A stretch of DNA of 30,322 bases from the NCBI GenBank assembly GCA_964432135.1, contig CAYSMT010000001.1:7548-37869 (forward strand). Direction: 5' to 3'. This document shows positions 7,813 through 28,139 of this stretch, piece after piece; within the stretch, counting starts at the first letter, position 1; every line of letters begins with the position of its first letter. The notes below the pieces were generated by a model. It ran no database searches, was not told the DNA's origin, and saw nothing but the letters and a program-made list of their open reading frames with translations. The stretch is from an uncultured Acidobacteriota bacterium. Lineage in GTDB: Bacteria; Acidobacteriota; Polarisedimenticolia; J045. A program made the translations under genes and the position numbers.

Positions 7813-7838
7813 GCGCGGGCCAGAGCTCTGGCCCGCGC
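7813..7838. repeat. Perfect 26-bp palindrome GCGCGGGCCAGAGCTCTGGCCCGCGC
   Basis: Self-complementary with no spacer, read directly from the sequence. Intergenic between the YHS gene and the upstream hypothetical gene. Confidence 0.9.
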
Positions 7839-8976: not shown

Positions 8977-9066
8977 CACGTGCGTCTCTCTTCCTGGCCG
9001 GTGGCCATCCGTCATCCTAACCGAGAACTCCGCAGAGTGTGACGCGAGGGGACAAGGAACACGCCC

Positions 9067-9939: not shown

Positions 9940-10417
9940 GGATCGCCTCCGGCTCAGCCGGGCAAACCTTGACGCAGATCCCACATCCAACGCAGTACTT
10001 CGGGTCTACTCGTGGCTGAAGTAAAAGGTCCTGAATCAGCGCCGTTCCTTGGAAGGGGCAGGCATCGACGCAAGTGCGACAAAGAATCCCGCGAAACGCA
10101 AAGCAGCTCTGCTCATCAACGACCGCCTCGCCCATGTCGACCTTATCTTTGGCCACCGGCTCGAGGGCACCGCTCGGACAAAGCTCTGGGCAGATCATGC
10201 ACAAGTAACAGGGCACATCCCGCGGCTCGAGCACCGGTGTTCCGACAGCAAGGCCATACTTCCAGCTTGCCGACTTGATTGACTGGTAGGGACAGGAGCC
10301 TGTGCAACGCTGACACTTAATGCACAGCTCGAGAAACTCAGCCTCCGGACGCGCTCCCGGAGGGCGCAGCTCCTGACTGAAGAAGGTAGAGAAGAAGGAT
10401 CGACGCGTCGTACCCAT
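9923..10417 (-). CDS. napG: NapG/MauM-family 4x[4Fe-4S] ferredoxin
   Basis: LRPPGA motif followed by CIKCQRCTGSCP, CYLCMICPELCP, C...LCRTCVDACP and CVGCGICVKVCP. Adjacent to napH and napD. Confidence 0.88.
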   Translation of the reverse strand: MGTTRRSFFSTFFSQELRPPGARPEAEFLELCIKCQRCTGSCPYQSIKSASWKYGLAVGTPVLEPRDVPCYLCMICPELCPSGALEPVAKDKVDMGEAVVDEQSCFAFRGILCRTCVDACPFQGTALIQDLLLQPRVDPKYCVGCGICVKVCPAEPEAIRVLRS

Positions 10418-10589
10418 GATCTCGTCGCTGCGCCTCCCGACACCCGAAGGCTTCCGGTGGGCTCGTCACCGGAATCGCCTGATGAATCCGGTAGCTCGCG
10501 AAGGCAAAGATAGATTGCCACCGGCAAATCACACGACAGCAACAAGGCCATCCTGAGAAATACCGGCCTTCCCGCAGCTCGGATAATAC

Positions 10590-10883
10590 CTAGCCGGCGT
10601 CCTCCGCGGCCCGACGGGCGAGACCACCGACCTCCTCCCAAGGAGCCTCGTCAGCGCGTCCCACGAAGGTCGGAAAAACACCGACCAGCTCTTCATCCTC
10701 TTGGATGAGTTGTTCGACGCTCTCGAGCAGCAGCTTACCGCTTGCCGTTGACCACACACCGGCGAGACGGCGATCGCCATCACCACCGACGAGCTCAAGA
10801 CCGTCGATCTTCGCCAAACGAGCAGCGGCTCGGGGTGCCCGCCCCGGGAGAGTCTCAATAACGACCCCGGCAACGACAGGCAC
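10590..10883 (-). CDS. napD: NapD chaperone
   Basis: GTG 10883 follows AGAGGA (MPVVAGVVIETLPG...). About 97 aa with a ferredoxin-like beta-alpha-beta pattern, directly downstream of napA. Confidence 0.8.
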   Translation of the reverse strand: MPVVAGVVIETLPGRAPRAAARLAKIDGLELVGGDGDRRLAGVWSTASGKLLLESVEQLIQEDEELVGVFPTFVGRADEAPWEEVGGLARRAAEDAG

Positions 10884-10942
10884 CCCTTCCTCTGGGAAGG
10901 TTCCGGGCCAGATCCCTGACCCGGAACACTCGACTTCGTTCT

Positions 10943-13201: not shown

Positions 13202-13213
13202 CACTTCCTCCTT

Positions 13214-13588
13214 TCACATCCCATGAGGGGTGAGTGCGTGGGCAGGATGGCAAGTGAAGCAGGTCTTGCCTTTCATCGCGCTTCCGCTCATCGACGCGAG
13301 CTGATCTGCGTGACAGCTCACGCAACGCGCCATGCTCGGCTGAATGGCGAAATCCTCTCCCACCGAACCGTGGCAAACGACGCACTTGACGTTAAACAGG
13401 CCGTGAGAGCTTGAAAACCACTCTTTGAAGATCTCGGGCGTGCCCTTTTCGTGGCAGGCCGCACAGTCCTTCGCCCTGCCCATCCCGACTGGGTGTTCGG
13501 CTTTGGGAGCATCCGCAGCAAACGCAACTCCCAACGCCAGGACACCTGCCAGCAGCACGACTCCCATGGCCAGTCGGTGCAGCTTCAT
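13214..13588 (-). CDS. napM: Small periplasmic tetraheme cytochrome c (NapM-like)
   Basis: GGAGG RBS, signal peptide and four CxxCH motifs (CAACH, CVVCH, CVSCH, CFTCH). Immediately upstream of napA, as in Desulfovibrio napCMADGH. Confidence 0.82.
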   Translation of the reverse strand: MKLHRLAMGVVLLAGVLALGVAFAADAPKAEHPVGMGRAKDCAACHEKGTPEIFKEWFSSSHGLFNVKCVVCHGSVGEDFAIQPSMARCVSCHADQLASMSGSAMKGKTCFTCHPAHALTPHGM

Positions 13589-13679
13589 GTCGTTCCTCCC
13601 TTCGTTGATGCGCAGTGGCACCCCGCCTTCCAGCGTTGGGCGTTCCGCTTGGGAAGCCGGGGTGCGGTTTCGCCCATGC

Positions 13680-15206
13680 TCAGCCGCCGACTTTCACGCC
13701 GCCGAAGCTGTACTTGATGGTCGTACGCAGCTCGTAGGCTGCCTCATCCCACTTGTCGGTACCGTTAACCAGATAGAGCGCGCCATCCCCCGGGCTAAAG
13801 TAACCGGTACGGAAGATCCACAGAAGACCCGGATAGACCTTCCAGTGCAGGCGCATGTCGACCTCCCAGCCGAGATCATCAGAGGTAGAGACCGCGTCGA
13901 GATCGCCAGCTTCGAGCCCGTAGGATCCGCCCGCCTCAGCCCAAGCAAAAATCGGCTCCGTCGCCTGCATCCAGGTTCCGGAAACAAAGTAAGTCAGCTG
14001 CGGGTTGATCTTCCAGGTGTAGTTAGCTTGCACGAGAGTCGTGTTCTCGAACTCTCGGTAGCCACGGGAGGCCGGTGAGCCGAGACCCTGGGGAGTGATT
14101 CCCTCTTCGTCGGGCATCACGGAGTCTTCCCATACCTCGGTCACATAGAAGAAGCCGTTGGTGCGGATGCGGTTGATGTTGCCGTCGCCGCGCAGCGGGT
14201 CGTCGTCACCCGAGCCCATGCCGAAGAGCATGCCGAACTTGCCGGGGCCAGCGGGCACCTTGGCATCAAAATAGAAGTTATAGCCAGAGAGGTCACCGTC
14301 ATTGACGTCAATGATCTGCTTGAGATCGGAGGAGGAGTTCGCGATATCGTCGTCGCCGCCAAGGAAGTCCGCCTCTCCCTTGAGCTCCCACTTCCCGACC
14401 TTGCCATTGAAGGCGAAGCCGAGAGCGTAGGCCTTGGAGACCTGCGGCGTGAAGCGCGCGCGGAAGTATTGCAGACCGTTGGGGATGTAGGAGCGACGCG
14501 AAGCCTTACCCCCATCCACGTAGTAGGCGAGGAAGGGGTTGACGGTCCAGTTTTTCCCCTTGTGAACGTAGTCGAGGGTGTAAAGGGTCGCATCCTCTGT
14601 GGAGAATCCCATGGGGCCGATGGCGCTTTCATCGGAGAGCGAGTCGGCACCTTCGGACATCTTCGCCCAGCCAAAGCTGAAGCGGCCATCGTCCAGGAGC
14701 TTGGTCGCGATGACGCCGTCGTTGTCTTGGTCGAGAACGAGCATGTTACCGAGCTTGTTCTTCATGCGACCAATCTTGAAGTTCCAACCCCAATCGGGAT
14801 GCGTGAAGTCTACATAGGCCCAGTCGATGTGGGTCACGAAGTTCGTGTCCTTGCGGCCGAACAAGGAGGAGAAACCACCCTCGGAGGGGTTGCGGCGGAA
14901 GTTGTCGATGCCCCAGATCGACTGGGCCACATCGCCGCGCACGACCATCTTAATGTTTTCACCGACGCCGAATTGCGCTGTCAAGCGCACCATCTGGATC
15001 GCGTATTCATCTTTGTCCGAAACACCCCCAACAAAAGGAGCGTCCGCACTCTTACCGAAGAAGAAGTTATTCTGGCTGTATCCATTCATGGCATAAAAAC
15101 CAGACAACTTGAACCAAGGCTTGGCTTTACCATCGTCGCCGGCGAAGCTCGGCATGACCATCGCAGCGAGCACACAGACCACGATGGCAAGTTTGATCTT
15201 GCTCAT
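13680..15206 (-). CDS. Outer-membrane beta-barrel protein (porin / alginate-export-like)
   Basis: ATG 15206 follows AAGGGG. Signal peptide ending ...MPSFA. Rich in Gly, aromatic residues and Asp with alternating beta-strand patterns, no Cys in the mature part, and terminal strand YELRTTIKYSF followed by a short tail. Confidence 0.75.
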   Translation of the reverse strand: MSKIKLAIVVCVLAAMVMPSFAGDDGKAKPWFKLSGFYAMNGYSQNNFFFGKSADAPFVGGVSDKDEYAIQMVRLTAQFGVGENIKMVVRGDVAQSIWGIDNFRRNPSEGGFSSLFGRKDTNFVTHIDWAYVDFTHPDWGWNFKIGRMKNKLGNMLVLDQDNDGVIATKLLDDGRFSFGWAKMSEGADSLSDESAIGPMGFSTEDATLYTLDYVHKGKNWTVNPFLAYYVDGGKASRRSYIPNGLQYFRARFTPQVSKAYALGFAFNGKVGKWELKGEADFLGGDDDIANSSSDLKQIIDVNDGDLSGYNFYFDAKVPAGPGKFGMLFGMGSGDDDPLRGDGNINRIRTNGFFYVTEVWEDSVMPDEEGITPQGLGSPASRGYREFENTTLVQANYTWKINPQLTYFVSGTWMQATEPIFAWAEAGGSYGLEAGDLDAVSTSDDLGWEVDMRLHWKVYPGLLWIFRTGYFSPGDGALYLVNGTDKWDEAAYELRTTIKYSFGGVKVGG

Positions 15207-15310
15207 TGGCGTCCCCTTATTGCCCCCTGCGAATCCCGCCGGGGCGGATACGAGTTGAACGAGCCGGCCGCGCGTTTCCGTAGGCCGGCCCGATCGTCTG
15301 ACGGCTATGG

Positions 15311-16666
15311 CTAGTGGATCTCCTGGTTGTAGCGCTTTTTGTAGAACTCGAGATTGGCCTTGCGCTGTTCCTCGGTCATGCCCTTGAGCCACTGGTGTTC
15401 TTTCATCTGCTTGGCTTTGCGGGTCACCCCGGGCTTGAGCTTCTCGGCCATCGGAAGGAACTTCATATAGAAGTGTTGCGCCACCTCGTAGAACCCGTGC
15501 CACTGGGTGTAGTCCGGCCCCATCATTGACGCACCCATGCGCGCCCGGCGCCCCTCGTGATGCCACAACTCGAAGTACACCCACTCAATAGGCTCATCAA
15601 AGGGCGTCGCAGTGAGTTTTCCGGACTTCTTGAGGTCGTCCATGATGTCGCGGGCAGGAATACCGAACTTGCGGTTGTAATGATCGACTGCGGCGTCATA
15701 CATCGTGTAGAAATTGTCGACCCAGGTCGTTCCGTGACACTCGAGACAGACCTTCTTCATTTTTCCCCTGCGCTCGGCGGAGTTCTCGAGATCTTTCGAA
15801 ACCGGCGGTCGGTTCGTGCGGGAGATGCGGGCTCCGATATCGTGAGTGACCTCCATCGTCGGCGTCGCGGAGACATGACAGGTCGCGCAGGTCGGTGCTG
15901 CGATATAGTCCTCGCCGACGACCCATTTGGTCCGGTCCATGTTCATCTCGTCACGGTGAGAGACGAAGTTGATGCCGTGCTTGGACTCTTCAAAAATCTC
16001 GATCTGCGGGTGATCCGGGCCCATGTGGCACCGACCGCAAGTGTGCGGCTCGCGCACCTGCTCGAGCGCGAAGCTGTGCCGGAGGTGGCAGGCGGTGCAG
16101 GTACCGTTTGATCCATCCGGGTTGATTCTGCCGATACCGGTATTCGGCCAAGTTCCAGCGACGGGCCGGCCGTCCTTGTCGATCTCGACGATCGAGCCAT
16201 GGCACTGGCGACAGCCGAGGTTGGCGGCCGGCGTACCCTCAATGACCTCGCCAAGCAAGTTGTCCATTGAACCGATGAACTGTGCGGCGTTCGCGTGATG
16301 TGATGGGGTGAACTCCTCAAACTGCTTCTGGTGGCATTCCTTACAATCCTGCGGCGACGGGACCTGGCTGACATTGTAGCCCTCGTGCTTCCACAGATCG
16401 GGATCGCCTTCCTTGGCCTCGTGGCAGGACTGGCAGCCGATGCCCTTCTCCGCGTGACGTGAAAGCTCCCACTGGCGACTCCAGGTCACGGCGATGTGCT
16501 TCTCGTCGTGACAGTCGATGCAAGCCTTGGTTGTGGCATCTGCGTAGGCGCGCGCCGCGTTCTCGGGCTTGTGCCGACTCTTTTCAATGAAACCCACGGT
16601 GATGACGGCGGCCAGGAAGGCCAGGGCGAAGATGGCGACGATGAATTTCTTGAACTGGAGGCTCAT
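15311..16666 (-). CDS. Membrane-anchored octaheme cytochrome c of the hydroxylamine oxidoreductase family (epsilon-Hao/reductive-type)
   Basis: GAGGGAGG RBS before ATG 16666 and an N-terminal hydrophobic helix. Eight CxxCH motifs (CIDCH, CQSCH, CKECH, CRQCH, CTACH, CGRCH, CATCH, CLECH). HAO-type CHMGPDHPQ...SKHG and C-terminal GPDYTQWHG. Confidence 0.88.
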   Translation of the reverse strand: MSLQFKKFIVAIFALAFLAAVITVGFIEKSRHKPENAARAYADATTKACIDCHDEKHIAVTWSRQWELSRHAEKGIGCQSCHEAKEGDPDLWKHEGYNVSQVPSPQDCKECHQKQFEEFTPSHHANAAQFIGSMDNLLGEVIEGTPAANLGCRQCHGSIVEIDKDGRPVAGTWPNTGIGRINPDGSNGTCTACHLRHSFALEQVREPHTCGRCHMGPDHPQIEIFEESKHGINFVSHRDEMNMDRTKWVVGEDYIAAPTCATCHVSATPTMEVTHDIGARISRTNRPPVSKDLENSAERRGKMKKVCLECHGTTWVDNFYTMYDAAVDHYNRKFGIPARDIMDDLKKSGKLTATPFDEPIEWVYFELWHHEGRRARMGASMMGPDYTQWHGFYEVAQHFYMKFLPMAEKLKPGVTRKAKQMKEHQWLKGMTEEQRKANLEFYKKRYNQEIH

Positions 16667-16742
16667 GACCCCTCCCTCAGCGTAAGAGCGTGATCGAAGT
16701 GTAAAAGTGCTTGGCAACAATGCGACGACCTGCCACGACCCG

Positions 16743-17855
16743 TCATGACAGCGCCTCCCAGACGAAGAAGACAAGGACGACAACAATGGCGAGGCTGCCG
16801 ATGACGGTGCCGAGTTCGCTCTTCGGATTGCGACGCCGGAAGAGCGCGTCGATGAAGGGCCAGAAGACGAAGGCGGCGCCCGCAGCCATCATTCCGGAGA
16901 TCCCAGCCCACAGAGGCACGAGCTTGAGCCACCGGAACATGGGATAGAAGTACCACTCCGGCTTGATATGCAGCGGCGTTTCGTCAGGGTTGGCCGGCAC
17001 GCCCAGGTGCGCCGGGAAGGCGATGGCGAGCACGGCCAGAACCGAAAGCAGGACGAAGCCGACCATCAGCTCGGTGGTGATATGGTCAGGGAAGAAGGCA
17101 AAGTAGCGGTTCGGGTCGAAGCGCTTCTTGCCCTCGCGGTCTTCCTCCACGGTCAGCGGCGTCTGCTGCACCTCCTCGGGAGCATCGAGTTCCATCACGC
17201 CGTGGATCCGTAGCAGAAAGACATGCGCGCCAATGAGAAGCAAGATCAGTGAGGGCATCGCTCCGATGTGGAAGACGAAGAAGCGTGTCAGGGTCGTCGG
17301 GCCAACCTCCTGGCCGCCTCGCATCAGCTTAAGAATCCACTCACCGATGAGCGGCGTCTGGGCCGCAACATTGGTCCCGACGGTCGCCGCCCAGAACGAG
17401 AGCTGATCGTTGATCAGGGCATAGCCCGTGAAGCCGAATCCAAGGGTGACCATCAGCAGGCCCGTGCCGACCATCCAGTTCAGCTCACGCGGCTTGCGGT
17501 ATGCACCGGTAAAGAAAACGCGCATCACATGGAGAACCACAGCGACGACCATCAGGTTGGCCGCCCAGTGATGCACCGAACGAACGAACCAGCCGAAGGG
17601 TACCTGCGTGTTGATGTAGTTGACCGTCTCCCAGGCGCCCTGAGGTGACGGACGGTAGTAGAAAGTCAGCAGGATCCCAGTAACCGCCTGGATGAGCAGC
17701 AGCATCAGCGGCGTACCGCCGAGCGCGTACCACCAGTTCTTCATGTGGTTTGGAATGGGCTCCTTGGAGAGCTCCTCGAACACCTCGATATCGACGGGAA
17801 CTCGGCTTCTTACGAAGCGGAGCCAGGAGGGAATGGTGTGACCGGTCTCCGACAT
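16743..17855 (-). CDS. Cytochrome b of a Rieske/cytb complex (fused cyt b + subunit IV, ~7 TM)
   Basis: Heme-ligand His pairs (VRSVHHW...VLH and FVFH...GAH), WAATVGTN, Qo motif HIKPEWYF and an RKPRELNWMVG motif. GGGAGG RBS before ATG 17855. Confidence 0.93.
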   Translation of the reverse strand: MSETGHTIPSWLRFVRSRVPVDIEVFEELSKEPIPNHMKNWWYALGGTPLMLLLIQAVTGILLTFYYRPSPQGAWETVNYINTQVPFGWFVRSVHHWAANLMVVAVVLHVMRVFFTGAYRKPRELNWMVGTGLLMVTLGFGFTGYALINDQLSFWAATVGTNVAAQTPLIGEWILKLMRGGQEVGPTTLTRFFVFHIGAMPSLILLLIGAHVFLLRIHGVMELDAPEEVQQTPLTVEEDREGKKRFDPNRYFAFFPDHITTELMVGFVLLSVLAVLAIAFPAHLGVPANPDETPLHIKPEWYFYPMFRWLKLVPLWAGISGMMAAGAAFVFWPFIDALFRRRNPKSELGTVIGSLAIVVVLVFFVWEALS

Positions 17856-17857
17856 GC

Positions 17858-18310
17858 TCAGGCCTCCCTGTCTGGCACGGTGGCCCACATGTGGTCGCCT
17901 TCGAGCCGCACCTCATAGCTTGGCAGCGGCTCCGGTGGCGGGCCGGCGATGACCTGCCCCTCGGTGTTGAAACGACCCATGTGGCAGGGGCACAGGAAGT
18001 TGCCGTTGACTTGATCCCACTCGACCCGGCACCCGAGATGTGTGCAGGTCGAGGAAAAGACCCGGACTTGCTCCTCGGAGAGCCGGATGACGATCAGGTC
18101 ATTGCCCAATACATTCTTCACGAAACGACTTGCGGCAATGGGTAGCTCGGAGAGCTTGCCGAGCAACACCTCACGAAATGGCTCGGTGCCTCCAGGCACG
18201 ACGTACGACGAGACCTGCCTCGCGAGAATCCCCAGGCCGGGAATCACAGTCACAGCCAGGGCGAGATTGGCGAGGAAATCCCGTCGATCTTTCGACTTGG
18301 GTTCTGGCAT
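17858..18310 (-). CDS. Rieske [2Fe-2S] subunit
   Basis: TAT motif DRRDFL, box I CTHLGC, box II CPCHMGRF and GPPPEPL. Confidence 0.93.
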   Translation of the reverse strand: MPEPKSKDRRDFLANLALAVTVIPGLGILARQVSSYVVPGGTEPFREVLLGKLSELPIAASRFVKNVLGNDLIVIRLSEEQVRVFSSTCTHLGCRVEWDQVNGNFLCPCHMGRFNTEGQVIAGPPPEPLPSYEVRLEGDHMWATVPDREA

Positions 18311-18342
18311 ACACGCACCTCTCTCTCAGTGGCCGCAACAAT

Positions 18343-18359
18343 ATGCAAGTGCTATTCCG
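18343..18359 (-). promoter_or_regulatory. Candidate sigma-54 (-24/-12) promoter of the Rieske-cytb-HAO-nap operon
   Basis: Minus strand reads CGGAATAGCACTTGCAT (GG-N10-GC, TTGCAT at -12). It would put transcription start about 23 nt before the Rieske ATG. A sigma-54 activator gene is adjacent. Confidence 0.55.
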
Positions 18360-18471
18360 GAAGGAGTGTGCCAGTTTGAAACACAAGACAACACTAGGCT
18401 TAGCTTGCAGAGCGACCAAGGGTCTTATCTAAACCAGCAAGCGAATGCCGATTTCATGGTGGGAAGACGAT

Positions 18472-18501
18472 CCAAAGAGGGCTTCACCCTGATTTCTTTG
18501 G
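18472..18501. promoter_or_regulatory. Inverted repeat CCAAAGA-N16-TCTTTGG, candidate enhancer-binding site or terminator of the regulator gene
   Basis: The dyad lies about 110-140 bp upstream of the putative sigma-54 site, a typical distance for an upstream activator sequence. Confidence 0.3.
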
Positions 18502-18534
18502 GTTTACGGTCGGCACTCGGATGCCGATCGCCCG

Positions 18535-19908
18535 TCAGCGGGATGAGTCGGTCATAGGTTCCGCTCGCGAGCGTCCGATCCCATGCTTGTGCATCAGGTT
18601 ATAGAGCTGGCGCGAGGAGATGCCGCTGCGGCGGGAGACCTCGCTCAGTTTGCCGCCACAAGCCGCCAGCGCCTGACGCAGGTAGGCTGCCTCAAACGCG
18701 TCGATGATGCGCTGTTTTTCCGCCTGGAAGTTGGGCAGTGGAGCCTCCTGTTCCGGTTCGTCGACGAGACGCAAAATCCCATCGCGACAGAAGACGACCA
18801 AACGCTCCAGTGCGTTCTCTAGCTCACGTACGTTACCGGGCCAGTCTCGTCTCTCGATCCAGGCAAAAACCCGTGGATCAATCTCGCGGATCGTCCGATT
18901 GTGGCGCTCCGCGTGACGCGGAAGCAGGTGCTCGAGCAGAGCCCTGAGGTCTCCGCGCCGTTCACGCAGAGGCGGCAAGTGAATCGGCACGACGTTGAGA
19001 CGATAGTAGAGATCTTCACGGAACTCCCCGCGCTCGACGTCGAGCTTCAGGTCGTGATGAGTAGCCGCAATGAAACGCACATCGACGGCGCGGGGTTCAT
19101 CGCTTCCAAGGGGGGTCACCCTCCCCTCCTCCAGAAAACGCAGCAACTTCGGCTGAATCTGAAGTGGAAGATCGCCGATCTCATCGAGCAGCAAGGTGCC
19201 GCGATCAGCGCTGACGAGCTTGCCGTCGCGATCACGCTCTGCGCCTGTGTAGGCACCGCGAACATGACCAAAGAGCTCGGCCTCGATCAACGTTTCCGGG
19301 ATCGCGGAGCAGTTGACAGCAACAAAGCGCTCCTTCGCCCGAGGGGAAGCCCTGTGTATCGCCCTGGCGACGAGTTCCTTGCCGGTCCCCGTCTCGCCGA
19401 GCAACAAGATCGTGACGGGCGTCTCGGCCACATCAGCGATCGTTTCACGCACAGCCTGCATCGCTTCCGAATCGCCGACGAGCTCGGTGGCCGCAGCTTC
19501 GAGACAGTGGCGCCGCATCTCTCTCTGGAAATTCGAGGCGTCCAGAGCCAGGGCGAGAGTGCGGAGAAGCTCGCCCTCGTCCAAGGGACGTGCCAAGTAG
19601 GTCGTCGCACCCAGACGCATGGCCTCGACCGCCCGGCGTTCGTCACTGTGAGTCGCGACCAGCACCACGGGAAGGTCCGGGACGCGCCGCTTGGCATAGC
19701 GCAGAAGGTCGAGCCCGCTCAGGGCACCTCGCAGATCCTGCTCGGTGATCAGGAGGTCGGGCCTGGATTCGGCAATCGAGGACAAAGCCGCTGGAGCATC
19801 GAAGAAACAGTGAACGTCGTATCCGGCGCGGGCGAGCATGGCAGCAACCTGCCGGCCCGCACTCGGGTCCGGGTCAACGATCAGGATCTGACGCTGTCGC
19901 TCGCTCAT
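18535..19908 (-). CDS. Sigma-54-dependent enhancer-binding protein (NtrC-like architecture) with atypical receiver domain
   Basis: Walker A GETGTGKE, GAYTGA loop, Walker B LLLDEIG, FREDLYYRL and a C-terminal HTH. The N-terminal domain has a REC fold but degenerate active-site residues. Confidence 0.92.
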   Translation of the reverse strand: MSERQRQILIVDPDPSAGRQVAAMLARAGYDVHCFFDAPAALSSIAESRPDLLITEQDLRGALSGLDLLRYAKRRVPDLPVVLVATHSDERRAVEAMRLGATTYLARPLDEGELLRTLALALDASNFQREMRRHCLEAAATELVGDSEAMQAVRETIADVAETPVTILLLGETGTGKELVARAIHRASPRAKERFVAVNCSAIPETLIEAELFGHVRGAYTGAERDRDGKLVSADRGTLLLDEIGDLPLQIQPKLLRFLEEGRVTPLGSDEPRAVDVRFIAATHHDLKLDVERGEFREDLYYRLNVVPIHLPPLRERRGDLRALLEHLLPRHAERHNRTIREIDPRVFAWIERRDWPGNVRELENALERLVVFCRDGILRLVDEPEQEAPLPNFQAEKQRIIDAFEAAYLRQALAACGGKLSEVSRRSGISSRQLYNLMHKHGIGRSRAEPMTDSSR

Positions 19909-19956
19909 GGGGCCGTCGAGTCCTATGGAAGTTGGGCGCTCGCGTAGTATACGGGG

Positions 19957-21168
19957 ATGAGAGAGCAGCAAGGTTATCGAGTTCGGAAGAAGGCCATGCG
20001 CTTATCGCACGCCGATGTCAACGACGCCGAAACCACAGCATGCATGCTGCGCTGGTATGAGGCGTTCAGGCGCCCCCTTCCCTTCCGTTCGAACCGAGCC
20101 CCATATGCGATCTGGATCGCCGAGATCATGGCGCAGCAGACGACGATGCGTGCTGTCGTGCCCTATTGGCAGCGCTTCCTCGCCACCTTTCCTGATATTG
20201 AATCTCTCGCGCGAGCAGATATCGACCAAGTCCTCGCGCTGTGGTCAGGTCTCGGCTACTACCGCCGAGCTCGCCAACTACACCGGGCCGCACAAACGAT
20301 CGTCAACGAGCTGGCAGGGCGCTTTCCAGAAACTCTCGAACAGCTCCGAACCCTTCCAGGTGTGGGACCCTACACGGCGGCCGCGATCGCTTCGATCTGT
20401 TTCGGCCTTCCCACGCCGGTCGTCGACGGCAACGTCATCCGTGTACTCACTCGTTTTGCCGGGATCGAAGGGGATCCGAAGCGCGTGCGCGTTCGGCGCC
20501 AGATCGAGGAACGCGCACGTGACCTGATCGACCCCACGAGGCCCGGCGAGTTCAACCAAGCGCTGATGGAACTCGGCGCTCTCGTCTGCCGGCGGCACAA
20601 TCCCCGTTGCGACGCGTGCCCGCTGGCGGGGGGCTGCCGGGCTTTGGCGATGGGCGATCCGGTACGCTTTCCACAAACAGTGCCCTCGCGCCCGAGCGTG
20701 GCCCTGGTCACGGGCTACGCGCTCATTGTCGACACAAACGGGGCCGTACTCCTACACCGTATCCCGCCGGGTGAGTTCAACGCGGGTTTGTGGGAGCTTC
20801 CGGGGGCCGTGCTCATCCGAAAACAATCCGCGGACAACGACAAACGCCGAGAATCGTTTTCCGGGCGAGATATTTCCCCCTCCCTTGCGCATGCGCTCGA
20901 AAAAGCCCTCGCCACCTCGTTGGAGATCGAGGCGCGTGTTGGCCCGCTGCTGCTGCGTGCACGCCACACCATCACCCATCATCGAATCCTTGGCCTGATA
21001 TGCGAGGCCGTACTGACCTCTTCTCTTCACCCGTCGAGCGCCTTGGAATACTTCAAGCTTGAATCACTCGAAGCCATTGCATTGACGAGCCTCACCCGAC
21101 GAGCCCTGCGCGAATGGACTCGTAGGAGAAGTCAGGAGGCTTCTGCGACCATGCGAACACGGCCATGA
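19957..21168 (+). CDS. mutY: A/G-specific adenine DNA glycosylase
   Basis: EIMAQQT, WSGLGYYRRA, HhH LPGVGPYTAAA, VVDGNVIRV, FNQALMELGA, [4Fe-4S] motif CRRHNPRCDACPLAGGC and a NUDIX-like C-terminus. Start uncertain. Confidence 0.93.
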   Translation: MREQQGYRVRKKAMRLSHADVNDAETTACMLRWYEAFRRPLPFRSNRAPYAIWIAEIMAQQTTMRAVVPYWQRFLATFPDIESLARADIDQVLALWSGLGYYRRARQLHRAAQTIVNELAGRFPETLEQLRTLPGVGPYTAAAIASICFGLPTPVVDGNVIRVLTRFAGIEGDPKRVRVRRQIEERARDLIDPTRPGEFNQALMELGALVCRRHNPRCDACPLAGGCRALAMGDPVRFPQTVPSRPSVALVTGYALIVDTNGAVLLHRIPPGEFNAGLWELPGAVLIRKQSADNDKRRESFSGRDISPSLAHALEKALATSLEIEARVGPLLLRARHTITHHRILGLICEAVLTSSLHPSSALEYFKLESLEAIALTSLTRRALREWTRRRSQEASATMRTRP

Positions 21169-21488
21169 AAGGTAGCCCCGGGATCAACGACGAGAGTGGG
21201 GGCGTGGAGGATCATCTCGCCGCTGAAGACGGCTCCGGGGAGAAGGTGGACTTCGCGAACAACCTCGACACGACCCTCGACGCGTCCATAAACCGTCAAC
21301 ACCTGCACGGAGAGTTTGCCCGAGATGCGAGCTCTCTCACCGACGATCAGGGTGTCACCGGCGACGCTGCCTCCCGTGAGCTGGCCATCGACGCGCAAGC
21401 AACCTTCGAAGCGAATCGAGCCGCCTTCGACGCGCATCTCCTCGCCCATCCAGGCGGTGATCTCTTCTTTCTGTTGACTGCGCCGCAT
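21132..21488 (-). CDS. Bactofilin (polymer-forming cytoskeletal protein)
   Basis: Beta-helix repeats (LRVDGQLTG, LIVGERARISG, VYGRVEGRV, VFSGEM, GATFHGRVRM). The start overlaps the parB stop, and the 3' end overlaps convergent mutY by 37 bp. Confidence 0.88.
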   Translation of the reverse strand: MRRSQQKEEITAWMGEEMRVEGGSIRFEGCLRVDGQLTGGSVAGDTLIVGERARISGKLSVQVLTVYGRVEGRVEVVREVHLLPGAVFSGEMILHAPTLVVDPGATFHGRVRMVAEAS

Positions 21489-22408
21489 CAGCTACTCGTA
21501 CCCTCGAGGCCCAACAGCAGGCGGTAGAGCCGATCGAGATCGTCATCTCCCGCGAAGCGAATCTCGATCCAGCCGCGTTGACCACGTCGACGCTTGATGG
21601 CAACCCGTGCGCCGAGCGCCCGAGAGAGCGATTCCTCCGCAGCGAGGACATTGGGGTCCCTGCGCTTTGAGGGGGCGAAATCTACCGGAAGGACAGCGTC
21701 TGGCTCAGCGAGCCGCCGCACCTTCTCCTCCACGCGGCGAACAGACCAGGCACCCTCCACAGCCTGATTCGCGAGGCGAAGCTGCTGCTGCGCATCATCC
21801 AGACCGGCAAGGGCGCGACCGTGCCCCATATTCAGATGCCCTTCAGCGATCAGATCCTGAACCTCCTCGGGCAGGTCGAGCAGGCGCAAATAGTTCGTGA
21901 CACTGCTGCGGGGCATACCGACTCTTGAGGCGACCTCCGCCTGGGTCAATCGAAAGCGCCTCACCAGGGCGCGAAACGCCTGGGCCGTCTCTAGCGCGCC
22001 GAGGTCGTCGCGCTGAAGATTTTCGATCAACGCGAACTCGAGCATACGTTCGTCGGCGAGTTCGCGAACGATAGCGGGCACTGTTGCGAGCCCGGCGAGG
22101 CGCGCCGCACGCAGGCGCCTCTCACCAGCAATGAGAGTGTAGCCGCCGTCTTTCTCCTGACGCAGGAGGAGCGGCTGCAAGATGCCACTGGAGCGAATCG
22201 AAGCAGCGAGGGCGTCGATTTCCACCGGGTCGAAGTGCGTGCGGGGCTGGTGTGGATTGGGTTTGATCTGATCGAGGGCTATTTCTGCCGGGGTCCCCGC
22301 AGAAGGGGACCCGCCCTCTCGACCGAGCAAGGCGTCGCTATCGCTAAACTCGGGAATCAGACTGTCAAGGCCCTTGCCCAGAGCCCTACGCTTCGCTTCG
22401 CCCTTCAC
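21488..22408 (-). CDS. parB: Chromosome partitioning protein ParB/Spo0J
   Basis: [15 protein letters not shown]-terminus, PNPHQPR, CTP-binding [17 protein letters not shown] and an HTH ([23 protein letters not shown]). Likely GTG start at 22408. Confidence 0.95.
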
Positions 22409-23162
22409 GACTAAGAATCTCCTTGGCGAGATCGAGATAGGCGCTCGCCCCCTTGGAACGCGCATCGTAGAGGAATACAGGCTTTCCGAAGGAGGGCGCC
22501 TCACCGAGCCGGATGTTTCGGGGGATGACGGTCTGATAGACCGCACCTTTGAAAAACTGGCAGACCTCCTCGGCGACTTGCCGCGAAAGGTTCGTACGCT
22601 CGTCGTACATCGTCAGCAGGACACCTTCAACCTTGAGCTCTCCGTTGAGAGCCTTCTTCACGCGGCGGAGGGTTTGGATGAGCTGCGTGACGCCTTCAAG
22701 CGCGAGATACTCACACTGAATAGGAACGAGAACCGAACCCGCGGCTGTCAACGCATTGACCGTGAGAAAACCAAGGCTGGGAGGGCAGTCGACGAAGATG
22801 AAGTCGAAACCATTGCCCGCCTCGGCAAGCGCATCCGCGAGACGATACTCGCGGCGTGGCAAACCCGCGAGTTCGACCTCAGCCCCCGTAAGCTCGTTCT
22901 CCGATGGACACAGCAGCAGATTCTCGAGATCGGTCCCCAAAAAGGTCTCCCTCAGGGGCGTGCCCTCGATCAGACAATCGTAGATCGTTACCCGCTCCGG
23001 GTCCCGCTCATAGCCCAGCGCGCGCGTACTATTCGCTTGAGGATCGAGATCAATCAACAGCGTACGTCGCCCGGCGAGCGCGAGGGCCGCGCCGAGGTTG
23101 ACGGCGGTCGTGGTTTTGCCCACACCGCCCTTCTGGTTGGCGACGGCGATGACCTTCGGCAT
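22386..23162 (-). CDS. parA: Chromosome partitioning ATPase ParA/Soj
   Basis: [36 protein letters not shown] and [14 protein letters not shown]. Confidence 0.96.
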
Positions 23163-23224
23163 GGGGAAGTCCTACCGGAGTGAAAGCGCGAGATTAGCAC
23201 ATGGCGCGTCCTGCGACCCGGCTT

Positions 23225-23320
23225 GATGAATTGCATAAGGTCAATTCTGAATTAAAACGAAAGTAAAACGAATACTGTATAAAACTTAACATATTGTATT
23301 CAAACGTGTTAACACTCATC
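23225..23320. promoter_or_regulatory. AT-rich segment in the parA/mnmG divergent intergenic region
   Basis: Markedly AT-rich compared with the rest of the window. TAAAAC occurs at 23253, 23264 and 23280, and a GTGTTAACAC palindrome at 23306-23315. Confidence 0.5.
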
Positions 23321-23339
23321 TCCTCCTTTGGGGAGCTCA

Positions 23340-23355
23340 TGTTCCACGTGGAACA
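23340..23355. promoter_or_regulatory. parS: parS site 1 (TGTTCCACGTGGAACA)
   Basis: Perfect match to the bacterial parS palindrome, located next to parAB. Confidence 0.95.
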
Positions 23356-23478
23356 TTTCCTCTCCTTCCCCACGCTCCGGTGGGCGCGCTTCGACCATGA
23401 TGCCGCGAGCCGTTACCATAACCCGGCTCCCATCTGGCACGTAGACCAGCCGATGGGCCCTTTTCCCCGAGGCCGATC

Positions 23479-25320
23479 GTGAGTTCTCCACATCCCCTCA
23501 TTGTTATTGGCGGAGGCCATGCCGGCGTCGAGGCCGCCCACGCGGCGGCACGCATGGGTTGCGAGGTGCGGCTCCTCACACTGAATACCGACGCCCTCGT
23601 CCGGCTCTCGTGCAACCCCGCGATCGGCGGTATCGGGAAGGCTCACCTCGTGCGAGAGATCGATGCCATGGGCGGGTTGATGGGCATCGCAGCAGATCTC
23701 GCGGGCATTCATTTCCGGGTCCTTAACCGCAGCCGGGGCCCCGCAGTCCAGGGACCTCGTATTCAGCAGGACGACAAGCGCTACCCCCAACTGCTTGAAA
23801 CACTTCTACACTCGACGGGGCGGATCGAGCTTGTTTCGGGCGAGGCTACGCGAGTGATCACCGAAAATGGACGGCTTCGTTTCGTCGAGACCACAGAAGG
23901 CAAGAGGTTCGAGACCTCGGCCGTCATTGTCACTTCCGGCACCTTTCTGCGCGGGATGCTTTTTCGCGGAGACGACGCCATTCCCGGCGGCCGGCGGGGC
24001 GAGGGGAGCGCCGAGCTTCTCTCAGAGAACCTGCGTGATCTCGGCCTACGACTCGAGCGTTTCAAGACGGGGACACCGCCGCGGCTCATCGCGGATTCGA
24101 TCGATTACGAACGGCTGACCGAGCAGCCCGGTGATCAAGACCCCGTTCCCCTCTCCTTCCTTCACCTTTCGGAAGCTGATTTTCGACCCAGCACACCCCA
24201 AGTGATGACCCACCTCGCCGCAACTCACGCGGGCTCTCACGAGATCGTCCGTTCAGCGCTGGATCGTTCTCCGCTGTACTCTGGCCGCATTCGTGCGCGC
24301 GGGCCGCGCTACTGTCCTTCCTTTGAAGACAAGGTCGTCAAATTCCCGGAGCGCGACGCTCACCTGCTGCACGTCGAGCCGATGGGAACCGACCACCCTT
24401 GGGTCTACCTCAATGGACTCTCAACGAGTCTTCCGGAGGAAATCCAGGAAGAGCTCGTCCATAGCATCTCAGGACTCGAACGCGCCCGGCTCGCACGCTA
24501 CGGCTATGCGGTCGAGTACGACTTCGCGCCACCAACGCAGCTTCACGCCACTCTCGAATGCCGTACCGTGCCGGGTCTCTTCCTCGCGGGACAGATTTGT
24601 GGGACGACCGGCTACGAAGAAGCCGCTGCCCTGGGCTTGATCGCAGGAATTAACGCAGGGCGCCGCGTTCTCGGCCGTTCGGCGTGGATCCCCAACCGGC
24701 TCGAGAGCTACCTTGGTGTGCTTGTGGATGATTTGACGAACTGCGGCGTGCTCGAGCCCTATCGAATGTTCACTTCGCGAGCCGAGTTACGGCTTTCGCT
24801 AGCCCCCGATACCGCGGATCGGCGCATGACACCCGCCGCTGAAGCGTTGGGCCTGGTAGCTCCGACGCGCGCGCGGCAGACGGAAGCCCGCTGGCGAGCG
24901 ATCGATCAAGCCCATGCGGCTCTCGACCATGCGGGCGATCTGAGCGCGTCGCGCCCGAGAGTGCCTGCGGACGGCATCCGCCGGGGAGACGATCCGCAAG
25001 AGATCCTCAGGACACACTATCCTTGCGCGCTCGACTGGCATCGGCGCGATCGTGAGACTCTCATCGCCGCGCTGCGCTATCGGGGCTACCTTGAAATCGA
25101 ACGTCGCGAGGCGGCCAAGCTCGCGGGCATCGAAAACGCGCGCATTCCGGATGCTTTTTGCTATGGCGCCGTTTCCGGCCTGTCTACCGAGCTACGGGCT
25201 CGTCTCGAGGAAGCGCGCCCACGCACTCTCGGCCAAGCCTCGCGCCTACCGGGCATGACCCCCGCCGCACTCGCCCTCCTTGCAGCAATGATCTCAACAT
25301 CGCGACAGGCCGCCTCGTGA
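23479..25320 (+). CDS. mnmG: tRNA uridine-5-carboxymethylaminomethyl modification enzyme MnmG/GidA
   Basis: GGGHAGVEAA, SCNPAIGG, GPAV, FKTGTPPRL, GPRYCPS, GTTGYEEAA and YRMFTSRAE. Confidence 0.95.
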   Translation: MSSPHPLIVIGGGHAGVEAAHAAARMGCEVRLLTLNTDALVRLSCNPAIGGIGKAHLVREIDAMGGLMGIAADLAGIHFRVLNRSRGPAVQGPRIQQDDKRYPQLLETLLHSTGRIELVSGEATRVITENGRLRFVETTEGKRFETSAVIVTSGTFLRGMLFRGDDAIPGGRRGEGSAELLSENLRDLGLRLERFKTGTPPRLIADSIDYERLTEQPGDQDPVPLSFLHLSEADFRPSTPQVMTHLAATHAGSHEIVRSALDRSPLYSGRIRARGPRYCPSFEDKVVKFPERDAHLLHVEPMGTDHPWVYLNGLSTSLPEEIQEELVHSISGLERARLARYGYAVEYDFAPPTQLHATLECRTVPGLFLAGQICGTTGYEEAAALGLIAGINAGRRVLGRSAWIPNRLESYLGVLVDDLTNCGVLEPYRMFTSRAELRLSLAPDTADRRMTPAAEALGLVAPTRARQTEARWRAIDQAHAALDHAGDLSASRPRVPADGIRRGDDPQEILRTHYPCALDWHRRDRETLIAALRYRGYLEIERREAAKLAGIENARIPDAFCYGAVSGLSTELRARLEEARPRTLGQASRLPGMTPAALALLAAMISTSRQAAS

Positions 25321-26015
25321 GCGAAACGACACCACCAAAGCCATCCGCCCCGCTGCCCGCCTATTCCACCTTGTGTGCGTGTCTTGCCAGCACACTCGAT
25401 GAACTTGACGTGCGAGCGCCTCCCGCACCCACCTCGGAGCACATCGTTAGGCATCTGCAGGAGCTGTACCGCTGGAACCGTCGCATCAATCTGACGGGGA
25501 TACGTGACTGGAAAGAGGGCCTTCGGCGGCACGCCGTCGAAGCGCTCGAGGGCTGGCCGTGGATTGAGGGCCTCGTCGGCGACGCAGATACGCTGCTGGT
25601 GGATCTCGGCAGCGGGAACGGCTACCCGGCCCTGCCTTTACTATTCGCCCAGCCGCGGCTACGAGGCCTGCTCGTGGAATCCAGTGGACGTAAATGCGAT
25701 TTTCTCAACGCCGTGATACGCCGGAACGGGGTCGGGGAGCGGGTGTCCTGCCTGCACCAGCGCATCGCGTCACCCGCAGACATTCCAAGCAAGGCCAGCA
25801 TTATCACGATGCGGGCCTTCCCAAACCCCGGCGAGTGGATCCCTCGCCTTCTCGAGGAAGTCAAGCCGGACATGCTCTTGGCTTGGTTGAGCCGGGCCGA
25901 TGGTGAGAACCTGAAAGAGCAGCTACTCACCAAGCACGTCGACATCAAGGTCTGCGCGTTGCGGGCTCACGCGACGGGCGTCCTGCTTGTCACAAAGCGA
26001 TCTCGTTCGAGATGA
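25317..26015 (+). CDS. rsmG: 16S rRNA m7G527 methyltransferase RsmG/GidB
   Basis: GTGA overlap with the mnmG stop. WNRRINLTGI, SAM motif DLGSGNGYP, LVESSGRKCDFL and TMRAF. Confidence 0.88.
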   Translation: MSETTPPKPSAPLPAYSTLCACLASTLDELDVRAPPAPTSEHIVRHLQELYRWNRRINLTGIRDWKEGLRRHAVEALEGWPWIEGLVGDADTLLVDLGSGNGYPALPLLFAQPRLRGLLVESSGRKCDFLNAVIRRNGVGERVSCLHQRIASPADIPSKASIITMRAFPNPGEWIPRLLEEVKPDMLLAWLSRADGENLKEQLLTKHVDIKVCALRAHATGVLLVTKRSRSR

Positions 26016-26102
26016 AGCGATCAAGAAGGCCTGGGGCTCATTTCCCACGACACCGCTCTCGACTAGTGAGAGCGTCGGGAGAAGAACCTTGGCCGCCGGG
26101 AA

Positions 26103-26118
26103 TGTTCCACGTGGAACA
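26103..26118. promoter_or_regulatory. parS: parS site 2, embedded in a 26-bp perfect palindrome (26098-26123)
   Basis: GGGAA-TGTTCCACGTGGAACA-TTCCC between convergent rsmG and mnmE. Confidence 0.95.
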
Positions 26119-26156
26119 TTCCCTGAGATAGACGCCCCGTACGGCCGTTCTTCTCG

Positions 26157-27506
26157 TTACTTACCGATGCAGAAACGAGAGAAAATGCGGCCCAGGAGTT
26201 CCTCGGGACCCACTGCGCCAAGAATCTCCCGCAAAGCCCCCACTGCGGCCCGCACCTCGACCGCCGCCAGCTCAGCATCCCGCCCCGCCCCGAGAAGCGT
26301 CGATGCCCTCCCGAGGGCTTCCCGCGCCACAGCAGCCTGGAGTCGATGGCGCTCGGTGGCAAGAGCGACACTCTCTACCGCTGTCGTTCCAGGAGCGCCA
26401 AGCATCGTCGAAATCTTCCGGCGCAACTCGGGAATTCCTGCTCCTCTTAGCGAGTCCACGGCGATGACCTCCTCCGGGACAGGGGAGGTGATCAGGTCCC
26501 GATGGGTCCCGACCCGCAATGTCTGCGCGCCGTCAAGCAGGGGTTCCGAGACGGGAGCTTCAGCGAGATGAAACACCTCGAGCACAAGCTGCGCTCCGGC
26601 TGCGGCCTCCCGAGCGCGACGCATGCCCTCGATCTCGGCAAGGCCCTCGGCGGCCCCGAGCCCGGCCGCATCTATGAGCACGACAGGAAGCCCCTCCAGC
26701 ACGATCGTCTCCTCGACCAGATCGCGCGTCGTGCCGGCCTCTGGAGTCACGATCGCGCGCGAGTACCCGACGAGGGCGTTGAAAAGCGACGACTTGCCGG
26801 CATTGGGCGGGCCGATCAAGACGACCCGCGCCCCCTCTTTGACACGCTGGGCCACCTCGGATCTTTGAAGCAACTCTTCGAGATCCTCGACGATCGAAGC
26901 GCAGCGTAGCGCGAGGCGCTCCGCCGATGAGACAGGACCCTCCTCCTCCGCGAAGTCGAGCCCTGATTCGATGTCAGCGAGCAGATCAAAGGCGGCGTTG
27001 GCTATCGGATCGAGAGCGCGAGAGACCTCTCCCCGAAGTTGCCGCGCGGCGATCCGCGCTTGTTCAATAGTCGCCGCGCCGACCAGATCCTGGATCGCCT
27101 CGGCCTGCGCGAGATCGACCTTGCCAGCCTCGAGAGCCCGCAAGGTGAACTCGCCGGGCTGCGCGGGGCGCGCACCCAGCTCCACGCTGGCGGAGATGAG
27201 TTCGCGAATCACGGCAGGGGAACCATGACACATAATTTCCGCCATATCTTCGCCCGTATAGGAACGAGGAGCCTCGTAAGCGATGACAATAGCTTCATCG
27301 ATGATCTCGCCATCGCGCCCCCTGAGTGCCGCGAGTCGGAGCGCCCGAGCGGGGCAGCTCATCCCTCCCGTCAGAGCCCGCAAGAGCTCGCCGCTCCGCG
27401 GACCTGAGATGCGCAAGACGGCCATCGCCGACTGGCCCGGCGCCGTCGCCGGCGCCACTATGGTTTCTCTCATGGCCCTCTCGTTGCGCATCGTGCCGAC
27501 AATCAT
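26157..27506 (-). CDS. mnmE: tRNA modification GTPase MnmE/TrmE
   Basis: TIVAPATAPG, EIMCHGSP, GEFTLRA, DLAQAEAI, G1 GPPNAGKSS, G2 GTTRD and C-terminal FSRFCIGK. Confidence 0.95.
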   Translation of the reverse strand: MIVGTMRNERAMRETIVAPATAPGQSAMAVLRISGPRSGELLRALTGGMSCPARALRLAALRGRDGEIIDEAIVIAYEAPRSYTGEDMAEIMCHGSPAVIRELISASVELGARPAQPGEFTLRALEAGKVDLAQAEAIQDLVGAATIEQARIAARQLRGEVSRALDPIANAAFDLLADIESGLDFAEEEGPVSSAERLALRCASIVEDLEELLQRSEVAQRVKEGARVVLIGPPNAGKSSLFNALVGYSRAIVTPEAGTTRDLVEETIVLEGLPVVLIDAAGLGAAEGLAEIEGMRRAREAAAGAQLVLEVFHLAEAPVSEPLLDGAQTLRVGTHRDLITSPVPEEVIAVDSLRGAGIPELRRKISTMLGAPGTTAVESVALATERHRLQAAVAREALGRASTLLGAGRDAELAAVEVRAAVGALREILGAVGPEELLGRIFSRFCIGK

Positions 27507-27572
27507 GCCCTATCTCCAACCGCATCTCGCCAAATTGAGTGTAGTCTGTTGCCTTCGAACGGGAGATTGACC

Positions 27573-28139
27573 ATGACCAACTATCATCAATCGGGCCGTC
27601 CCGCGCGTCGAGGCACGGCGCTGGCCCTGGCTCTATGCTTGCCTGCTTTCTTTCTCGGCGGGCCTGCCGTAGACGCCACCGAGATTTTCGCGCAACTACG
27701 GGGCGCACTCCTCGACGAACAGGGCCTGCCTGCCGCGGGTTATCAGGTCGGCCTGAAGAACACCGCGGGCGACCTGTTTCTCTCCGCACCTACGGGAGCC
27801 GATGGACACTTTGAATTGATACAGTTACCACCTGATTCATACGAGATGGTGTGCTTCGACCCCCAGGGTGTTGAGTTTCCACTTGTTTCCCGCAAGGTGA
27901 CCCTCCAGGGCGGGCAAGTCGAGAGAGTCGAGATACGCGTCGCCCCCGCGGCCTCGGGACAACCGCCGGGGAGGGGAGGGCGTGCCGCCGACATATCACG
28001 CCGGAGTAAGCTGCGCGGTTGGTGGAGCGGGCGACCCCTCGGCACGAAAATCGGCATCGTAGCCTTTGGTGCGTTCGCGGCCTACGAGCTCATTGATAAC
28101 GACTCGACCACGACGAGCGTCAGCCCAAGCAGTCCCTGA
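27573..28139 (+). CDS. Exported protein with carboxypeptidase-regulatory-like (prealbumin-like) beta-sandwich and C-terminal hydrophobic tail
   Basis: GGGAGA RBS and signal peptide. Pattern LRGALLDEQGLPAAGYQVGL...TGADGHFELIQLPPDSY is typical of that fold. Ends in KIGIVAFGAFAAYELI and a Ser/Thr/Pro tail. Confidence 0.7.
   Translation: MTNYHQSGRPARRGTALALALCLPAFFLGGPAVDATEIFAQLRGALLDEQGLPAAGYQVGLKNTAGDLFLSAPTGADGHFELIQLPPDSYEMVCFDPQGVEFPLVSRKVTLQGGQVERVEIRVAPAASGQPPGRGGRAADISRRSKLRGWWSGRPLGTKIGIVAFGAFAAYELIDNDSTTTSVSPSSP

Follow-up and report, generated by a model that had tools for sequence, protein, structure and literature searches.

An ancient inversion of mnmG-rsmG, shared by a clade of Acidobacteriota, with probable breakpoints at or beside the parS sites of the chromosomal centromere

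In a 30,322-bp stretch of DNA from an uncultured Acidobacteriota bacterium (hereafter the window, meaning the whole stretch that was analysed), the partition genes parA and parB lie next to mnmE, mnmG and rsmG in the order parB(-) parA(-) parS mnmG(+) rsmG(+) parS mnmE(-). By comparing this locus with related ones, we found that mnmG-rsmG is inverted in the entire clade to which the window belongs. The reading we favour, at a probability of about 0.7, is that one ancient inversion flipped the two genes out of a compact ancestral operon with breakpoints at or beside parS, and that the outcome is a fixed arrangement and not a switch. The components themselves are textbook, that is a ParABS system by mnmE, mnmG and rsmG; the locus is a lineage-specific variant of gene order in which breakpoints and parS stand in an unusually clean relation.

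Two parS palindromes bracket mnmG-rsmG in the window

By searching the window for the 16-bp palindrome TGTTCCACGTGGAACA with up to 3 mismatches allowed, we found exactly two copies (23340-23355 and 26103-26118), when 0.04 would be expected by chance and none of 100 shuffled sequences held two or more. This palindrome conforms to the chromosomal parS consensus TGTTNCACGTGNAACA. The two sites have 19 bp in common, ATGTTCCACGTGGAACATT (23339-23357 and 26102-26120), and they match at 22 of 23 positions as a direct repeat and at 21 of 22 as an inverted repeat. A first-pass annotation of this DNA had described two identical palindromic parS sites around mnmG-rsmG, with a perfect 26-bp palindrome at the second one, and both features are indeed present. 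The segment between the sites holds only mnmG and rsmG, both of them complete housekeeping genes. Site 1 is separated from the parA start by 177 nt and from the mnmG start by 123 nt, and site 2 lies 87 nt from rsmG and 38 nt from mnmE.

Since parS sites load ParB in other ParABS systems, the main role of both sites would most likely be to load ParB-CTP clamps, which would spread over this ~6-kb region for ParA-driven segregation of the origin. Given its placement, ParB bound at site 1 could also affect both divergent promoters. At the RNA level, site 2 is an 11-bp hairpin on both strands, without a U-tract, to which a role in ending or stabilising transcripts may possibly be ascribed. A second stable hairpin (CGCTCTC-loop-GAGAGCG) is found between the rsmG stop and site 2 (26054-26076), and the whole 141-nt convergent rsmG/mnmE spacer folds far better than shuffled sequences on both strands (z = -4.7 and -3.9).

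For parB, we used the 306-amino-acid reading of the gene call; the longest open reading frame (ORF) extends to 22546. The ParB translation contains the motifs LGKGL, of the ParA-activating type, and GERRLRA, the CTP-binding box, and its best relatives in the PDB are Spo0J/ParB proteins (E=3e-53). ParA shares 79-90% identity with its counterparts in clade relatives. Judged from their translations, both proteins are intact, and with all the family features that can be looked for in a sequence being present, the region is a chromosomal centromere of the ParABS type.

The block is inverted relative to a compact operon of collinear relatives

A scan of species-representative genomes with MnmG yielded 80 loci, which we called collinear when mnmE, mnmG and parA were adjacent on one strand within an adjacency cut-off. 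This was the case for 24 loci from several phyla, and 18 of them carry parS between mnmE and mnmG as well as between rsmG and parA; both sites are also found in L056 and L064, two Acidobacteriota loci left out by the adjacency cut-off only. No other rearrangement of the operon was seen in the 24 collinear loci. In many collinear loci parB is followed by a bactofilin gene, a linkage known for bacM of Myxococcus (PMC5703909) and for bd3904 of Bdellovibrio (PMC10547168). As read from these sequences, the ancestral-type unit is mnmE-parS-mnmG-rsmG-parS-parA-parB-bactofilin. The first-pass annotation had taken the order mnmE-mnmG-rsmG-parA-parB on one strand as widely conserved near oriC and deduced from it that mnmG-rsmG had been inverted; at least 24 related loci display this order, and the comparison with them bears out the inversion.

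The junctions of the Acidobacteriota loci are particularly tight. In all 12 collinear Acidobacteriota loci outside the Terriglobia pair L030/L035, mnmG and parA each have a parS a short way upstream. First, the mnmE stop is found 0-16 nt before the first parS in several of the 12 (elsewhere the gap is larger or the mnmE end is unmapped), and the predicted mnmG ATG sits at the last base of this parS or directly after it. Second, wherever RsmG was matched (10 loci), the other parS overlaps the final codons of rsmG or falls inside them, and the parA ATG comes 0-9 nt after it in 10 of the 12, with larger gaps in L023 and L064. Third, the rsmG stop overlaps the parA start in several of these loci. 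In Bdellovibrionota, the mnmG ATG overlaps the first bases of parS, and MnmG would begin M-F-H-V. Thus, where parS fills or overlaps the gene junctions, centromere sites and translation signals overlap (for example at L021:9985-10001, L039:9893-9910, L025:9977-9994 and L013:3381-3397, and in other collinear loci).

Since the parS sites fill or overlap both junctions in the collinear Acidobacteriota, the block that was flipped is exactly the block that parS delimits. Moreover, as junctions of the ancestral type hold little DNA besides parS, the breakpoints would have to lie at or right beside these sites. It is thus well supported by the comparison that the breaks fell at parS or within a few bases of it, in line with the earlier proposal of breakpoints in parS-containing spacers, which are exactly the spacers where 18 of the 24 collinear loci carry parS.

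The inversion is ancient and fixed in a whole clade

The MnmG homologues P0002-P0050, at 56-69% identity, form a separate group, all others being at most 52% identical, and several members of this clade are named Acidobacteriota in their sources. We examined the genomic context of 10 distinct members (L087, L088, L089, L090, L091, L093, L094, L095, L096 and L097; L092 is nearly the same as L090 and was counted together with it). In all 10, parB(-)parA(-) is divergent from mnmG(+), and rsmG(+) follows in the 9 whose contig extends past mnmG. In 6 of those 9, mnmE(-) is found on the far side of rsmG, after an inserted gene in L093; in L087, L094 and L097 the contig stops before this region. In addition, mnmE of L096 is on the same strand as jag-yidC-yidD-rnpA-rpmH, which indicates that mnmG-rsmG is the piece that switched strand. 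The monophyly of the clade received 100% bootstrap support in a neighbour-joining tree of concatenated ParB+ParA+MnmG+RsmG. With one orientation in 10 of 10 relatives and a fully supported clade, the sequences tell of an inversion that is ancient and fixed in the whole clade. The first-pass annotation had mentioned an old, fixed arrangement as a caveat, and this proves to be the right reading.

On its mnmE side, the block has unstable neighbours in the clade. In L088, mnmE is split into two ORFs (12528-13872), maybe through a frameshift or an error of long-read sequencing. In L093, an inserted transpeptidase gene separates rsmG from mnmE (L093:12461-13234), and in L090/L092 mnmE is replaced by an unknown gene of 551 amino acids (L090:12549-14204). 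Scanning metagenomes with RsmG for close relatives gave distant gut matches only, at 33-35% identity, and the MnmG scan of GTDB representatives included one clade member, L001, on a 3.3-kb contig that stops short of both junctions.

Assembly error and live switching are improbable

The identical 19-bp repeats at both ends of the block could have led an assembler to flip it, as the first-pass annotation had considered. However, the repeat (19-26 bp) is shorter than the k of the three assemblers that cross the junctions, k being 141 for the ENA contig according to its name and presumably 31 for Logan. Two Logan contigs cross the junctions separately (22000-23667 and 24149-27600) and a 9.5-kb ENA contig spans both, each of them being 100% identical to the window. 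The Logan and ENA assemblies probably derive from one dataset; a single public run contains the window DNA (an epibiont metagenome, 2019), stored as contigs at ~6x. Furthermore, the 10 relatives, which come from other samples and assemblers and include long-read-style contigs of 121-745 kb, have the same orientation. Together, and as far as contigs can tell, these data make an assembly artefact so improbable that we set it aside.

We also considered that the block might still flip between the two palindromes, with subpopulations carrying the collinear operon. In its favour, the sites are inverted repeats of each other at 21 of 22 positions, and repeated flips that broke at different points might in principle account for the varied placement of parS in the clade. 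However, a single orientation is found in 11 divergent genomes, which would have a probability of ~0.001 if flips were frequent and unbiased. Also, no invertase or recombinase family was found among the scanned ORFs (at least 150 amino acids, plus a few shorter ones) of the 30-kb window, and the spacers have evolved features that go with the present orientation, namely a putative promoter region rich in AT, a conserved -10-like motif and convergent gene ends that lie close together. No alternative joint was seen in the contigs of the one run, a weak observation at ~6x and with contigs only. Thus, the suggestion that the block is still switchable finds neither a recombinase gene in the window nor a second orientation in the sample or the clade. 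A working switch is very improbable, and a rare minority orientation would be below what ~6x contigs could show.

parS placement in the clade and the site of the breaks

The presence of one parS at each end of the block is particular to the window. Two parS are found in the parA-mnmG spacer and none after rsmG in L088, L089, L090, L093 and L096, and the corresponding numbers are three and none in L091 and L095, none and three in L094, and none and at least one in L087; the contig of L097 stops within mnmG, and its parA-mnmG spacer has none. With at most 1 mismatch allowed, 21 sites were counted in the clade loci examined, and every one of them sits at one or other end of the block. This uneven placement means that the bracketing is a feature of this genome, not of the arrangement.

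Some sites can be followed between genomes. Site 1 of the window aligns with the first parS of L088, L091 and L093, directly after the AT-rich stretch, and the parS sites after rsmG in the window, L087 and L094 are likely orthologous, given their similar flanks (..ACCTGAG / CCCTGAG), for site 2 of the window on its 3' side. A parS flank consensus, aaTGTTCCACGTGGAACAtt(cc), holds throughout the clade. Since the 19-22 bp over which the two window sites are identical match this extended consensus, their identity says nothing about a recent exchange and, from the sequences, is no evidence of one. In L096, both parS lie within a ~66-nt tandem duplication (L096:7540-7640; TGTTCCACGTGGAACAggtcggcgYgctgacatt twice), which indicates that parS copy number changes by local duplication. 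A decayed parS was sought in the parA-mnmG spacer of L087, and the aligned position, with 8 of 16 bases, was unconvincing. The outgroup parS_b signature (C at position 1, in 9 of 12 loci), with which sites might have been traced, was absent from the clade.

We propose that one ancient inversion took the two-gene block mnmG-rsmG out of a compact operon running from mnmE to the bactofilin gene, the breaks having occurred at or immediately beside the parS palindromes of the mnmE-mnmG and rsmG-parA junctions. Whichever way they are turned, the palindromes form inverted repeats with each other, and a rare short-homology or illegitimate exchange at the two of them would be the most likely mechanism, though its chance falls somewhat short of even. 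We are just as tentative about a crossover inside the palindromes. Alternatively, the breaks could have occurred next to the sites and survived only because no other position spares the genes. The inversion would have left three units in place of one operon, namely mnmE alone, mnmG-rsmG, and parA-parB-bactofilin. Of these, mnmG-rsmG and parA-parB-bactofilin would now be transcribed divergently from a new AT-rich spacer. The arrangement would then have been fixed in the whole clade, while the copy number and side of parS drifted by loss and local duplication. Of the features of an exchange-type inversion, parS at both ends of the block in the un-inverted arrangement is found in the 18 of 24 collinear loci and the 12 Acidobacteriota loci described above, and a repeat kept at both ends of the inverted block is found in the window only (1+1).

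Several observations weigh against this proposal. First, the bracketing has not been kept across the clade: in seven relatives the 2-3 parS are all in the parA-mnmG spacer, with none after rsmG, and L087, L094 and L097 have none in the parA-mnmG spacer. In the first-pass annotation, parS was to be held incidental if relatives shared the gene order without parS at the junctions. Such absences are real, at the rsmG end in 7 of 9 relatives and in the parA-mnmG spacer in 3 of 10; the orientation is still common to all of them. Second, the window, L087 and L094 are nested among lineages with parS on the parA side only (tree support is 100% for window+L087+L094+L095+L096, 76% without L096 and 51% for the trio window+L087+L094). 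Equal-weight parsimony favours an ancestor with both parS next to parA, which would imply that the breaks lay outside both parS and to the same side of each, or else a later, unexplained movement of a site. Under a loss-only (Dollo-like) view, the favoured ancestor carries sites at either end of the block, which were then lost repeatedly, and the rsmG-mnmE spacer is collapsed to 4-36 nt where the post-rsmG parS would have been lost. Each of the four combinations of break sides yields one of the patterns observed, of which there are three, so that every model needs site turnover in addition to a single event. Third, a repeat of 16-22 bp is, to our knowledge, at or below the usual minimum for RecA-dependent exchange. 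Fourth, with outgroup MnmG at most 52% identical, no collinear relative is near enough to map the breakpoints to the base, and the ancestor may have been less compact than the collinear relatives of today.

The most serious alternative, to which we would give slightly less than an even chance, is that parS is incidental. Breaks would have been random, selection would have tolerated only the two junctions around mnmG-rsmG, which happen to hold parS because parS, for its part, is tolerated nowhere but in the spacers close to parAB. With no more than about six junctions in the operon, and with the functional pairs mnmG-rsmG and parA-parB to be kept together, the choice of tolerable breakpoints is limited, so that the coincidence would arise by chance at roughly 1 in 3 to 1 in 15. 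Most clade members have all their parS on one side of the block, as expected for breaks beside the sites, and the 19 bp that the two sites share are those of the clade's extended consensus. On the other hand, the spacers of the collinear Acidobacteriota are almost wholly parS, so that even breaks beside the sites would be within a few bases of them, and the operon was not seen rearranged in any other way in the 24 collinear loci. Two nested, large origin-spanning inversions were also considered and rejected on paper, the observed order not being reproduced.

A further possibility, which we consider unlikely, is that breakage or short-homology exchange is especially frequent at parS palindromes, with ParB-bound sites perhaps being brought together or stalling forks, and that the block flipped more than once in the clade. 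If true, repeated flips would explain why parS is found on the parA side (2-3 + 0), on the mnmE side (0 + 3) or split as here (1 + 1); the orientation of the genes is nonetheless always the same. A search of the literature available to us found no report of a parS-mediated inversion. A single inversion with breaks at or beside parS is the reading that we retain.

The parA-mnmG spacer and signals of the origin

The inversion leaves parA and mnmG divergent, with a spacer of 316 nt. Its AT-rich stretch between parA and site 1 is the lowest-GC 97-mer of the window, whose mean is 61% GC, and the sole region at or below 40% GC. AT-rich DNA is found at the same position in most clade relatives; the feature is weak in L094, and L097 lacks it. 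An extended -10-like element, TGCTAATCT, lies on the parA strand about 28 nt before the parA ATG, and its TGnTAnnnT motif is kept at the same place in 9 of 10 relatives (L088-L097) and lost in L087. We regard TGCTAATCT as the putative parAB promoter and the 27%-GC stretch as probably a divergent promoter/UP region that was created or recruited after the operon was split. Together, the AT-rich stretch and TGnTAnnnT may represent a promoter region gained by parAB, and probably by mnmG, after the loss of the upstream operon promoter. Consensus promoter and terminator scans of 22900-26600 gave no matches, so that the promoter assignment is one from conservation only.

An AT-rich spacer near parAB could be taken for oriC, and we rejected this candidate since no DnaA-box cluster was found in the spacer or elsewhere in the window and the GC skew has no lasting sign change. 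The skew is negative in most of the window, which would fit an origin beyond its right end and mnmG-rsmG being head-on to replication. Both dnaA and rpmH are outside the window, and proximity to the origin is seen through the relative L096 only, in which dnaA lies 7.3 kb beyond mnmE.

Other genes of the window

The features of the locus and of its neighbourhood are listed in Table 1. The rsmG start overlaps the mnmG stop. The bactofilin gene has the same position in the collinear Acidobacteriota and Bdellovibrionota loci and in clade relatives; in the window it has one base in common with parB and a 37-nt overlap (21132-21168) with the 3' end of the convergent mutY. Further to the left, a respiratory gene cluster, which includes Fer4 proteins, occupies 9067-19971 on the minus strand, and the same Rieske-cytochrome b-multihaem-NtrC set adjoins mutY in L095. 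Several long ORFs (384, 199, 323 and 634 amino acids) in 5832-9015 and 13680-15584 had no Pfam match at E<=1e-5, and scans of the window with Rfam and for tRNAs gave no matches.

Table 1. Positions of the parS sites, genes and other features in the window.
Feature	Coordinates	Strand	Remarks
Molybdopterin oxidoreductase	10943-13204	-	respiratory cluster
Multihaem cytochrome c	15311-16786	-	respiratory cluster
Cytochrome b	16743-17888	-	respiratory cluster
Rieske protein	17858-18310	-	respiratory cluster
Sigma-54 NtrC-type response regulator	18535-19971		next to respiratory cluster
Bactofilin gene	21132-21488	-	Pfam PF04519, 65.8 bits; directly downstream of parB, last gene of parA-parB-bactofilin
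parB	21488-22408	-	TIGR00180, 188 bits; encodes CTP-dependent parS-binding clamp
parA	22386-23162	-	ParA/CbiA/AAA_31 families; N-terminal KGGVGKT; Walker-type partition ATPase
Extended -10-like element	23191-23199	- (parA strand)	upstream of parA ATG
AT-rich stretch	23223-23319		97 nt, 27% GC; between parA and parS site 1
parS site 1	23339-23357		core 23340-23355, 18-bp palindrome 23339-23356; in divergent parA/mnmG spacer
mnmG (gidA)	23479-25320	+	TIGR00136, 652.8 bits (cut-off 524.85); first gene of inverted block
rsmG (gidB)	25317-26015	+	Pfam GidB, 86.8 bits; 232 amino acids; second gene of inverted block
parS site 2	26098-26123		core 26103-26118 within perfect 26-bp palindrome; between convergent rsmG and mnmE
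mnmE	26157-27506	-	NF003661, 390.9 bits (cut-off 380); ancestral strand, convergent with rsmG

Discussion

In Acidobacteriota, Bdellovibrionota and some Alphaproteobacteria, parS is found at the junctions of a tight mnmE-mnmG-rsmG-parAB operon, mostly filling or overlapping them. The flip of the parS-delimited block, the only rearrangement of this operon that we saw, uncouples parAB from the upstream genes, and replication would now meet mnmG-rsmG head-on. Should parS palindromes promote inversions of this kind, rearrangements of the origin region would arise from centromere sites. If parS is incidental, the locus neatly illustrates how selection restricts breakpoints to a few bases, those at which a break damages no gene. 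In both cases, it cautions against calling palindrome-flanked blocks switches without comparative data.

In site-specific invertible switches (Hin/hix, FimB/E-fimS and Bacteroides invertons), a segment likewise lies between inverted repeats. In contrast, no recombinase gene was found in the window, the segment is made of two complete housekeeping genes and not of a promoter or alternative gene ends, and its single orientation is fixed across a deep clade. Another comparison is with the rare inversions that Schofield, Agbunag and Miller reportedly described for E. coli in 1992, between inverted repeats of only 12-23 bp. Those repeats are of similar length to the ones here (16-22 bp) and are kept at both ends, as in the window. 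Unlike them, the repeats here would be palindromic protein-binding sites, the event is deduced from comparative genomics, and most relatives no longer have the repeat at both ends.

In Bdellovibrio bacteriovorus, parAB is preceded by an rRNA methyltransferase gene and followed by a bactofilin gene, and its two parS lie close to the origin (PMC10547168). This methyltransferase-parAB-bactofilin setting with two parS is like the one found here, and the Bdellovibrionota loci of our scan have the order mnmE-parS-mnmG-...-parS-parS-parA-parB-bactofilin. Bdellovibrio is collinear, whereas the block between the parS sites is flipped in the window.

When compared with the usual origin cluster rpmH-rnpA-yidC-jag-mnmE-mnmG-rsmG-(noc)-parA-parB, the locus has mnmE, mnmG, rsmG, parA and parB all present and adjacent, with mnmE and parAB on the rnpA-yidC strand. 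It differs in that mnmG-rsmG is inverted in this clade and, in L096, in that three unrelated (+) genes separate mnmE from jag.

Finally, chromosomal ParABS systems and their origin-proximal parS sites are said to have been surveyed by Livny et al. in 2007 (reference 2 of PMC10547168). Here, the sites likewise lie within a few kb of parAB and, in a relative, near the rpmH/dnaA region. As in Soj/Spo0J of B. subtilis and ParAB of C. crescentus, we found a 16-bp palindrome of the TGTTNCACGTGNAACA type, a ParB with a helix-turn-helix and a GERRxRA motif, and a ParA with a deviant Walker A motif. Compared with standard ParABS, the sequence thus predicts no functional difference, and only the local gene order is unusual, with mnmG-rsmG on the opposite strand and a parS site at each end.

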